A stretch of DNA of 64,000 nucleotides from Candidatus Syntrophosphaera sp. (GTDB lineage Bacteria > Cloacimonadota > Cloacimonadia > Cloacimonadales > Cloacimonadaceae), in contig JAHYIU010000002.1 of NCBI GenBank assembly GCA_019429425.1, forward strand, positions 185 through 64,184. The letters are read 5' to 3'. Under the pieces are notes generated by a model. The model ran no database searches and was not told the DNA's origin. It saw only the letters and a program-made list of their open reading frames with translations. Shown here in pieces: positions 27,542 to 27,889 of the stretch. Position 1 is the stretch's first letter, and the number at the start of each line of letters is the position of its first letter. The translations under genes were made by a program, and so were the position numbers.

Positions 27542-27613
27542 GGGCGGTCATCCTGGCTTCAAAATCAAGCCTCCATGGAGCCAGATTGGGAATCCGATTT
27601 GAAATCTCAGCCT

Positions 27614-27728
27614 CCGCCCTCCCTTGACGGCGTTTATCACTTGCCTATCCACTGTCTATCACTTGTCTATAATAGACAAGTGATAGACAGTGGATAGGCA
27701 AGTGATAGCCAGGGTGAAAAGAGGGCGG
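27614..27728. repeat. Hairpin repeat family 1, copy B (most complete copy)
   Basis: Layout: CCGCCCTC (27614-27621), 13 nt, perfect 36-nt arm (27635-27670, three 11-nt units TATCACTTGCC/TATCCACTGTC/TATCACTTGTC), centre a27671, perfect 36-nt arm (27672-27707), 13 nt, GAGGGCGG (27721-27728). Located ~75 nt downstream of the last glucan-locus gene. Confidence 0.9.
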
Positions 27729-27889
27729 ATCAAACGTAAAATGGCTAGCAGCCTTGCTTGCGGGCTGGGGAATGAGAATCCGGAAGCAAAATTCAATTGA
27801 CATAATGCGACGGATGCATTCATTTGTTTGGAGACAGGATCTTCCTGCCAGTCCAGTATCCGTGAAATGAATCAGCAGAGGAGAACAGA

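Follow-up and report, generated by a model that had tools for sequence, protein, structure and literature searches.

Mirrored arrays of 11-nucleotide units as a probable foldback-type interspersed repeat of the Cloacimonadaceae

Introduction

What kind of element is a perfect 73-nt palindrome built of 11-nt tandem units and placed upstream of a ComM gene? The element, which we call A2, occupies positions 27613-27729 of a 64,000-nt stretch of Candidatus Syntrophosphaera sp. (GenBank contig JAHYIU010000002.1; family Cloacimonadaceae), hereafter the window. The original prediction, made from the letters of the window, had offered four roles: a recombination or boundary site, a binding array for a phased DNA-binding protein, an RNase III processing site at operon ends, and a non-autonomous mobile element.

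We find that the last of these fits best. [quoted passage not shown] An interspersed repeat is the best fit to near-identical dispersed copies, sharp common boundaries, unrelated spacers, several families per genome, genome-specific variants, orthologous sites that lack the element, and random orientation. In their behavior the elements resemble miniature DNA of a selfish or mobile kind and not a signal specific to a gene; at the ComM locus A2 is an accessory insertion that lies upstream of a conserved promoter, and is no finding on gene regulation.

Results

A2 is an inverted repeat over its entire span of 117 nt, from TCCGCCCTC to GAGGGCGGA. At its heart lies an exact palindrome (27635-27707) of 36 nt, a central A at 27671, and 36 nt; on the + strand the left arm reads TATCACTTGCC TATCCACTGTC TATCACTTGTC TAT (27635-27670), and the right arm (27672-27707) is its exact reverse complement. 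Each arm holds three 11-nt units, seen by Tandem Repeats Finder as period 11 with 3.3-3.4 copies per arm (3.3 in the left arm). The outer motifs, CCGCCCTC at 27614-27621 and GAGGGCGG at 27721-27728, each stand exactly 13 nt from the palindrome (spacers 27622-27634 and 27708-27720), and the layout first described, of 73-nt palindrome, 11-nt units, 13-nt spacers, and outer motifs, is borne out by the sequence. The C-rich left terminal motif TCCGCCCTCCCT (27613-27624, +) recurs as the same 12-mer at the end of a copy with other units (locus L198, subtype S3 below), and the right terminal motif GAGGGCGGA (27721-27729, +) is identical in a second copy, A1, at 160-168, with A1/A2 similarity ending directly after it. 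The right spacer GCCAGGGTGAAAA (27708-27720, +), kept in A1 as AGACAGCGTGAAAA, looks like a decayed fourth unit when read outward as TTTTCACCCTGG (compare CTATCACTTGCC). A 131-nt stretch with A2 folds at -87.3 kcal/mol as RNA, against -31.7 ± 3.2 for 200 shuffles (z = -17), and at -52.8 kcal/mol as DNA (z = -16). The observation is confirmed as real and highly non-random.

No T tract lies 3' of A2, and positions 27600-27740 contain neither GTTRRRY/RYYYAAC nor GTAG/CTAC; a single GACG (the CGTC tetranucleotide) at 27626 is inside the left spacer, not at the stem end. We rejected as a target duplication a 13-nt direct repeat around A2 (27584 and 27770), given that homology between A1 and A2 extends no further than the terminal motifs. 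TGA recurs every 11 nt and puts stop codons in all frames, a pattern within chance for 100 nt of such composition. Likenesses to DnaA boxes, lambda operator half-sites (TATCAC), Fur boxes, XerC/D 11-bp arms, and -35 hexamers were set aside as partial and confined to single families.

Scanning the whole window for long hairpins (score of at least 14) yielded four, all of the 11-nt-unit type, at distances of 12-28 kb from one another and surrounded by housekeeping genes in both orientations. A1 (54-168; palindrome core 75-145), a second family-A copy that the original prediction had missed, has a degenerate left terminal motif (CACCCTC) and T instead of A at its center; it lies between two - strand genes, one for a GH3 glycosidase and the other starting at the left edge of the window (start read by eye). 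A second family, B (units TCAWTACGGNN, loop AAA), had been proposed at 45.8 and 57.8 kb and is real: B1 (45774-45872) lies between converging EamA-like and PhoU genes, and B2 (57789-57887) between a divergent TPR/AAA/cyclase gene and an [FeFe]-hydrogenase gene, lying 74 nt upstream of that gene's -35 box. The protein encoded by the ComM/YifB gene next to A2 is 100% identical to one of a Candidatus Syntrophosphaera MAG (Cloacimonadota), with the same outcome for the hydrogenase. Similarity between A1 and A2 extends over 97-105 nt and ends at TCCGCCCTC and GAGGGCGGA, and that between B1 and B2 over 99 nt, ending at TCGCCCTCC and GGGRGCC; because similarity stops there, the motifs once described as clamps are the ends of the repeated unit. 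The claim that the second family has the same architecture holds, but its unit is not "completely different," since both families have the terminal motif CGCCCTC(C), the 11-nt period, and a TATCA/ATCA unit start.

To look beyond the window we used a degenerate B pattern with two B units per arm, which in the window matches B1 and B2 only and for which shuffles expect 0 matches. It matches at least 120 metagenome contigs, so the element is not unique to this contig, and 0 viral contigs. The exact family-A core, CACTTGTCTATNATAGACAAGTG, has 0 matches in GTDB species genomes, JGI metagenomes, and viral contigs, and family A is therefore seen in this window alone; a plasmid database returned no match to A2 or to the consensus of the B subtype S1. 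Our copy statistics rest on metagenome loci among the B-pattern matches listed. All 120 listed loci (~950 kb) contain a long near-perfect palindrome with 11-nt units, and 1.21 Mb of sequence related to Cloacimonadaceae holds 138 hairpins with a score of 14 or more, 132 of which have 11-nt periodic arms. Because the listed contigs share proteins with the window organism (hydrogenase 86% identical, pst operon 57-76%), they come from its relatives; a ComM-based search for related loci gave mostly other phyla, L004 alone being informative.

At least five unit families (A to E) follow one plan, in line with the predicted conserved structure with a variable stem: a C-rich terminal motif (general form CSGCYCYCC), 2-4 exact 11-nt units, a loop of 1-9 nt, and the mirror image. 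In all families each unit opens with an (A/T)TCA core, the other 6-7 nt being what sets a family apart, and arms of 2-4 units are sometimes unequal (L150, L103, L112). Family B comprises three abundant subtypes, S1 (...GCTCCCGTTAGCAATACGGAATCATTACGGAGTCATTACGGA-GTTAA-...), S2 (...GCTCCCAATATCAATACGGTATCAATACGGAATCAATACGGAT-TTC-...), and S3 (...ATCAATACGGGATCAATACGGGATCAWTACGGAT-TTC-...), besides other variants; family C (unit TTAATCAAGCS) occurs in L172, L180, L201, L141, and L226-228, family D (unit TCATACCGGAG) in L004, from a Ca. Cloacimonas genome, and in L197, and family E (unit TCAYTGCGS) in L213. Different families are found within one genome, A and B in the window and B and C in L172/L180/L201, and copies number about one per 16-36 kb in sampled regions. 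The superfamily is restricted to Cloacimonadaceae, where it is widespread, and is apparently undescribed: a literature search on such repeats in Cloacimonadota, incomplete in coverage, found no description, and a likewise incomplete check turned up no match to a described REP or MITE family. Other repeats occur near some copies, namely three tandem copies of a 19-nt unit, GATTCCGCGTCTTGCAGGA, at L004 6990-7050, ~100 nt from the D-type element, and a ~140-nt repeat present in four tandem copies at L116 1476-1974 and partly in L148 and L156 near S2 copies (flank BLAST).

The elements are strictly intergenic: none of 129 lies within an open reading frame (ORF) of 100 aa or more, in sequence with a coding fraction of 0.865. 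The 81 copies with a gene on both sides divide into 36 between tandem, 23 between convergent, and 22 between divergent genes. These counts fit the shares of intergenic length in the three contexts (0.51, 0.23, and 0.27; chi-square ~1.9, 2 df, our own calculation), and element location is thus proportional to available space. TTGACA boxes within 260 nt of an element are directed away from it in 59 cases and towards it in 10, and -35 boxes are most frequent 10-30 nt outside the element ends; the elements are therefore found upstream of promoters, or else downstream of genes, and very rarely within a 5' leader. Orientation, judged by the asymmetric loop against the direction of the flanking gene, is unbiased (7:4 for S1, 8:8 for S2/S3).

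Conservation profiles from 43, 33, and 17 distinct copies drop to background just beyond the terminal motifs, the conserved span of S1 ending at CATCGCTCCC...GGGAGCGATG and those of S2 and S3 at equivalent motifs. Within a subfamily the inner 34 positions per arm are near invariant, and the flanks are unrelated. At the outer 10-12 positions the two arms vary independently and do not covary (S1 position 40: TA 21, CA 12, TG 8, CG 2, near the expectation for independence), and T.G pairs are no commoner in the outer stem than C.A mismatches. There is therefore no sign of selection for pairing in the supposed clamp and no RNA-stem signature; the terminal motifs behave like two copies of one motif, inverted. 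No outer boundary tested in these 93 distinct copies is enriched in direct repeats of 2-9 nt that would mark a target-site duplication, and individual copies inspected agree. Inside the arms, a unit position (CAATAC/CATTAC) flips between A and T independently per arm, even in orthologous copies with 97-99% identical flanks (L148/L156, L118/L198), as would be expected from exchange between units or arms.

Presence of the elements differs at orthologous sites. In the window A2 lies in a 348-nt spacer between the gene for a secreted protein with a type IX secretion system (T9SS) sorting tail (25946-27541, +; Pfam PF18962) and the ComM/YifB gene (27890-29431, also +). In L204-206, where ComM is 89% identical and the same five genes lie upstream, this spacer is 116 nt long and element-free, and the -35 region is conserved although the element is absent; alignments place the corresponding TTGACA -35-like box of the window at 27797-27802 (+). 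A further relative, L001 (ComM 91% identical), has no element in the EamA-PhoU spacer nor upstream of ComM. The search for filled versus empty orthologous pairs among sampled loci gave 9 of 9 pairs filled. Variants are genome-specific: in each of the two copies in L217 (hydrogenase 87% identical), most units show TCATTGCGG instead of the TCATTACGG of the window. Upstream of the [FeFe]-hydrogenase gene, the spacer is occupied by family B in the window (57789-57887), a B variant with TCATTGCGG in L217 (9517-9593), and family C in L226-L228 (9684-9732), at distances from the conserved hydrogenase -35 box that differ among the three lineages; a fourth lineage (L218-225) has no element there, its gene being fused into an operon.

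Many contigs end within the element, as a multi-copy repeat would lead one to expect, and 29 of the 129 copies are no more than 150 nt from a locus end. One contig (L159 1-227) opens with a perfect foldback with 111-nt arms that is centered on an S1 copy and includes unique flank; this is most likely a snap-back or assembly artifact, and as such offers indirect evidence of the element priming itself as a hairpin. The S2 copies of L096, L157, and L109 have one flank in common and the other different, the result of recombination among dispersed copies or else of a chimeric assembly spanning the repeat.

Which protein might move the elements? None of the 20 window ORFs scanned with Pfam is transposase-like, and no frame of the window contains an ORF resembling a REP-associated tyrosine transposase (RAYT). 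Local searches with E. coli RayT as query gave two RAYT-like ORFs in loci selected for the element (L124 640-1269, -; L189 1186-1818, +), both above the Pfam Y1_Tnp cut-off and with visible HUH and Y motifs. Each lies ~270 nt from an S2 copy, an adjacency with p ~0.02 by a rough estimate that may only reflect repeats accumulating in the same spacers. Homologs carry annotation as Cloacimonadota transposases or RayT, and further Y1_Tnp genes are present at L213 5001-5633, 830 nt from a family-E copy, at L215 5001-5630, and at L226 6192-6824 (-). The RAYT-like genes sit in clusters of their own short GC-rich REP hairpins (types ACCGGATTCATCCGGT, CACACGTCCCGTGTG, and GGCAGGCGGGACGCCTGCC). At loci found independently of the element (L214, L215/216, L226) no 11-nt palindrome is beside the gene, and the genes of L215/216 and L226-228 are flanked by short REPs. 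In their own right these Cloacimonadaceae loci are classic REPtrons in a candidate phylum, and many of the homologs are on ~1-kb contigs, presumably because flanking REPs break assemblies.

A short REP tagged with GTAG/GTAA, GTAGGGGCGGACGCCGATCCGCCC, abuts 7-9 S1 copies at 0-10 nt from one end (S1-type examples at L084 3486, L102 1759, L125 1498, L160 5218, L176 1902, L181 5795, and L184 127), mostly on one constant side relative to the S1 loop, and so forms a composite module like a bacterial interspersed mosaic element. The 7-mers of its stem, GGGCGGA/TCCGCCC, are the terminal motifs of window family A in reversed order. RAYT as mobilizer of the 11-nt-unit elements is possible but unsupported. 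A Mu-like transposase was rejected as mobilizer on account of its end repeats, CCACTGTGACA, which differ from the element; its gene (L204 1-700; Pfam Mu-transpos_C) and an adjacent end with several CCACTGTGACA repeats occupy the position of the GntR/LacI-type regulator gene of the window.

Two further features of the window concern other repeats and genes. A 343-aa ORF without Pfam match (44677-45708, -) overlaps the EamA-like gene (44764-45582, +) and is probably a spurious shadow ORF, and a 24-nt tandem repeat (2.1 copies, 41180-41230) lies within a 1113-aa ORF (38973-42314).

Discussion

We suggest that A2 and its relatives spread as non-autonomous foldback repeats whose folded form is what is mobilized. 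Since all five families lack an internal segment, a hairpin or cruciform appears to matter beyond the presence of two protein-binding ends, and a period of exactly 11 nt throughout the families suggests a reader that makes one binding contact for each turn of the helix. We infer a trans-acting protein, a hairpin intermediate, and present-day mobility. In the working that we propose, the phased units, one per helical turn, would be cooperative, family-specific sites for a transposase or recombinase encoded in trans; because the arms abut, a single-stranded copy (lagging-strand template or excised strand) would snap into a hairpin of 36-50 bp, the likely substrate or intermediate; new copies would enter intergenic DNA without target duplication; and selection would remove insertions within genes or between a promoter and its gene. 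Template switching among arms and units could then keep the arms alike and let variants sweep all units and copies of a genome. The missing target duplication, together with the poorly defined termini, argues against a classical DDE-type MITE and would suit a single-strand route or one of recombinase type. A binding array for a phased protein, one of the roles first offered, is plausible as the way in which the mobilizing protein reads the arms, and unlikely as a chromosomal regulator site.

Several observations weigh against a mobile foldback repeat. No mobilizing gene was found, and the ~1.2 Mb of fragments contain neither a solo arm nor an arm-flanked gene; no protein family recurs beside the elements except T9SS-tail and FGE-sulfatase proteins, both of which these genomes simply encode in abundance. 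Conservation is lowest at the termini, an unusual trait for cut-and-paste elements. Because spacers have diverged, with nearest relatives at ~89-92% protein identity, no exact filled/empty junction can be defined, and the 120 metagenome loci were chosen by the B pattern, which skews counts to family B. Finally, the occupation of the hydrogenase upstream spacer in three lineages could hint at a host function, although a large permissive target hit repeatedly is the simpler explanation.

Two alternatives keep the element mobile and name its enzyme. In one, it is a REPIN-type element moved by RAYT, an IS200-like tyrosine transposase of the Y1/HUH type that would cut and paste the hairpin formed on single-stranded DNA. 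RAYT-like genes above the curated Y1_Tnp cut-off are present in element-bearing genomes, at ~270 nt from an S2 copy in both element-selected loci and 830 nt from the family-E copy in L213, a GTAG-tagged REP abuts S1 copies, the absence of target duplication is as with HUH enzymes, and repeat families with long terminal inverted repeats beside RAYT-like genes are on record (Di Nocera et al., 2013; PMC3733652). Yet every RAYT-like gene examined has short GC-rich REPs of its own on both sides, unrelated in sequence and without 11-nt arrays; the arms lack a GTAG tag and are not self-palindromic, the sole CGTC being the one in the left spacer of A2; genes reached independently of the element have no adjacent palindrome; and the adjacency in L124 and L189 may be mere repeat pile-up. 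We therefore judge movement by RAYT unlikely. Less probable still is a classical MITE, derived by internal deletion from an insertion sequence (IS) with a DDE transposase and long composite inverted repeats. Its inverted terminal motifs, varying per arm like terminal inverted repeats, its size of ~100 nt, and its non-coding, intergenic character would suit such an origin, and the 11-nt arrays recall the ends of Mu, Tn7, and IS21-type elements, which carry multiple phased sites. The 93 distinct copies nevertheless lack a 2-9 bp target-site duplication at any tested boundary, 1.2 Mb contain no parent IS or solo arm, the arms always abut with no internal remnant in any of five families, and the Mu-like element of L204 has other end repeats.

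The remaining alternatives give the element a function for its host. It might be an RNA structure selected at the ends of transcription units, whether as bidirectional terminator, mRNA 3' stabilizer, or RNase III site: either strand folds into a very stable hairpin, 59 of the 81 placeable copies are downstream of at least one gene, and the 59 to 10 excess of promoter boxes directed away keeps it out of most 5' leaders. However, 22 of the 81 lie between divergent genes and so upstream of both promoters, no U tract is present, the two sides of the outer stem vary independently with C.A as common as T.G, orientation to genes is unbiased, and orthologous sites lack the element. Rfam 15 gave 0 gathering-threshold matches in the whole window, and the sub-threshold ones, to eukaryotic miRNA-precursor and snoRNA models and mostly on both strands, are generic matches to long hairpins. 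An RNA role is thus improbable, and the predicted RNase III site at operon ends in particular sits badly with the divergent copies, the random orientation, and the lack of a G.U-over-A.C bias. An array of six phased sites upstream of promoters, bound on the chromosome by a regulator or nucleoid protein to organize or regulate neighboring genes, would account for the exact period and common (A/T)TCA core of all families, for -35 boxes peaking 10-30 nt past the element ends, and for the filled hydrogenase spacer in three lineages. It accounts poorly for unrelated unit families in one genome (A and B in the window, B and C in L172/L180/L201) and even in that same spacer, for 23 copies between converging genes, and for close relatives without the element at the same promoter, and the copying of loops and non-unit flanks along with units is copy-paste, not site evolution; we hold it to be slightly less probable than an RNA role. 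The roles of terminator, RNase III site, and regulator array are accordingly not supported.

If the interspersed-repeat reading is true, the Cloacimonadaceae, key syntrophs of anaerobic digesters known only from metagenomes, carry many copies of an undescribed type of repeat with an unusually regular internal grammar, in which each unit spans one helical turn, the array is mirrored, and unit sequences are interchangeable. Such repeats break and mis-join metagenome assemblies and might find use as markers of strains; with them one could study how selfish DNA that folds into hairpins spreads and stays homogeneous with no duplication of its target, and they give an entry point to the protein that recognizes phased 11-bp modules. 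A bolder version, which we consider doubtful, is that they represent a new class of prokaryotic mobile DNA: hairpin-dependent, duplication-free foldback elements with modular 11-bp recognition arrays and a rapidly co-evolving, Cloacimonadaceae-specific reader that would be neither RAYT nor a classical DDE enzyme, the unit sequence acting as a changeable "address" that sets apart independent families in one genome.

How do these elements compare with known systems? As first predicted, sequence tests set them apart from integron attC sites, CRISPR, and ordinary terminators. Like attC sites, which are imperfect palindromes of 57-141 nt read as folded single strands, they conserve structure more than sequence; neither R'' (RYYYAAC) nor R' (GTTRRRY) occurs within 27600-27740, however, and copies are dispersed singly instead of forming a co-oriented cassette array. 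An intrinsic terminator would not have a 36-bp AT-rich stem without T run, nor would 22 of 81 copies lie between divergent genes. CRISPR repeats are direct repeats of 24-48 nt with unique spacers, whereas the units here are 11 nt, contiguous, and mirrored.

The likeness to REPINs and RAYT-associated REPs, as defined in Bertels and Rainey, 2011 (PMC3116915) and Di Nocera et al., 2013 (PMC3733652), is closer: both are strictly extragenic, ~100-nt hairpin doublets of high copy number, formed by inverted halves, with several families per genome, no target duplication, family sequences that vary between genomes, and RAYT-like genes in the same genomes. The 20-40 bp imperfect palindromic unit of a REP is absent, however, since the arms are three direct 11-nt units that pair arm-to-arm only. 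The unpaired GTAG/CGTC tag given for one end of the palindrome in PMC3733652 is absent as well, the subfamily consensus ending in CATCGCTCCC/GGGAGCGATG, and the RAYT genes do not have the same repeats on their flanks in L124, L189, L215/216, or L226. REPs, according to that text, prefer unidirectional and convergent spacers; the 11-nt-unit elements do not avoid divergent ones. Among the bacterial MITEs that it lists (Correia/NEMIS, ERIC, RUP, and Nezha), the resemblance lies in being small (70-300 bp), non-coding, intergenic, dispersed, and hairpin-forming, with terminal inverted repeats. The elements differ from these in having no target duplication in the 43+33+17 distinct copies, no internal segment, and inverted repeats that are tandem arrays; no solo arm or arm-flanked gene that would point to a parent, an autonomous IS with the same ends, turned up in the ~1.2 Mb of fragments.

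The BrickBuilt MITE of Porphyromonas gingivalis (PMC4596501), with direct 23-nt repeats between short inverted ends, belongs to the same superphylum and is likewise species-restricted, always intergenic, and a spacer-less tandem array. It differs in being neither a mirror-image array nor a long perfect hairpin. For the way in which 11-nt arms could be read, a possible model is the parC centromere of plasmid R1, where 11-bp iterons, one per helical turn, are bound cooperatively by the small protein ParR. parC differs in that its repeats are direct and flank a promoter at one plasmid locus, being neither dispersed nor palindromic, and we identified no ParR-like partner here. The closest architectural counterpart is found in the foldback transposons of Drosophila and relatives, which have long inverted arms made of short tandem subrepeats in variable number, although they are eukaryotic, kilobase-sized, and flanked by target duplications, sometimes with a coding middle; this analogy is architectural only and implies no homology. 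The 11-nt-unit elements of the Cloacimonadaceae thus come nearest to REPINs and MITEs in how they work, and to eukaryotic foldback elements in how they look.

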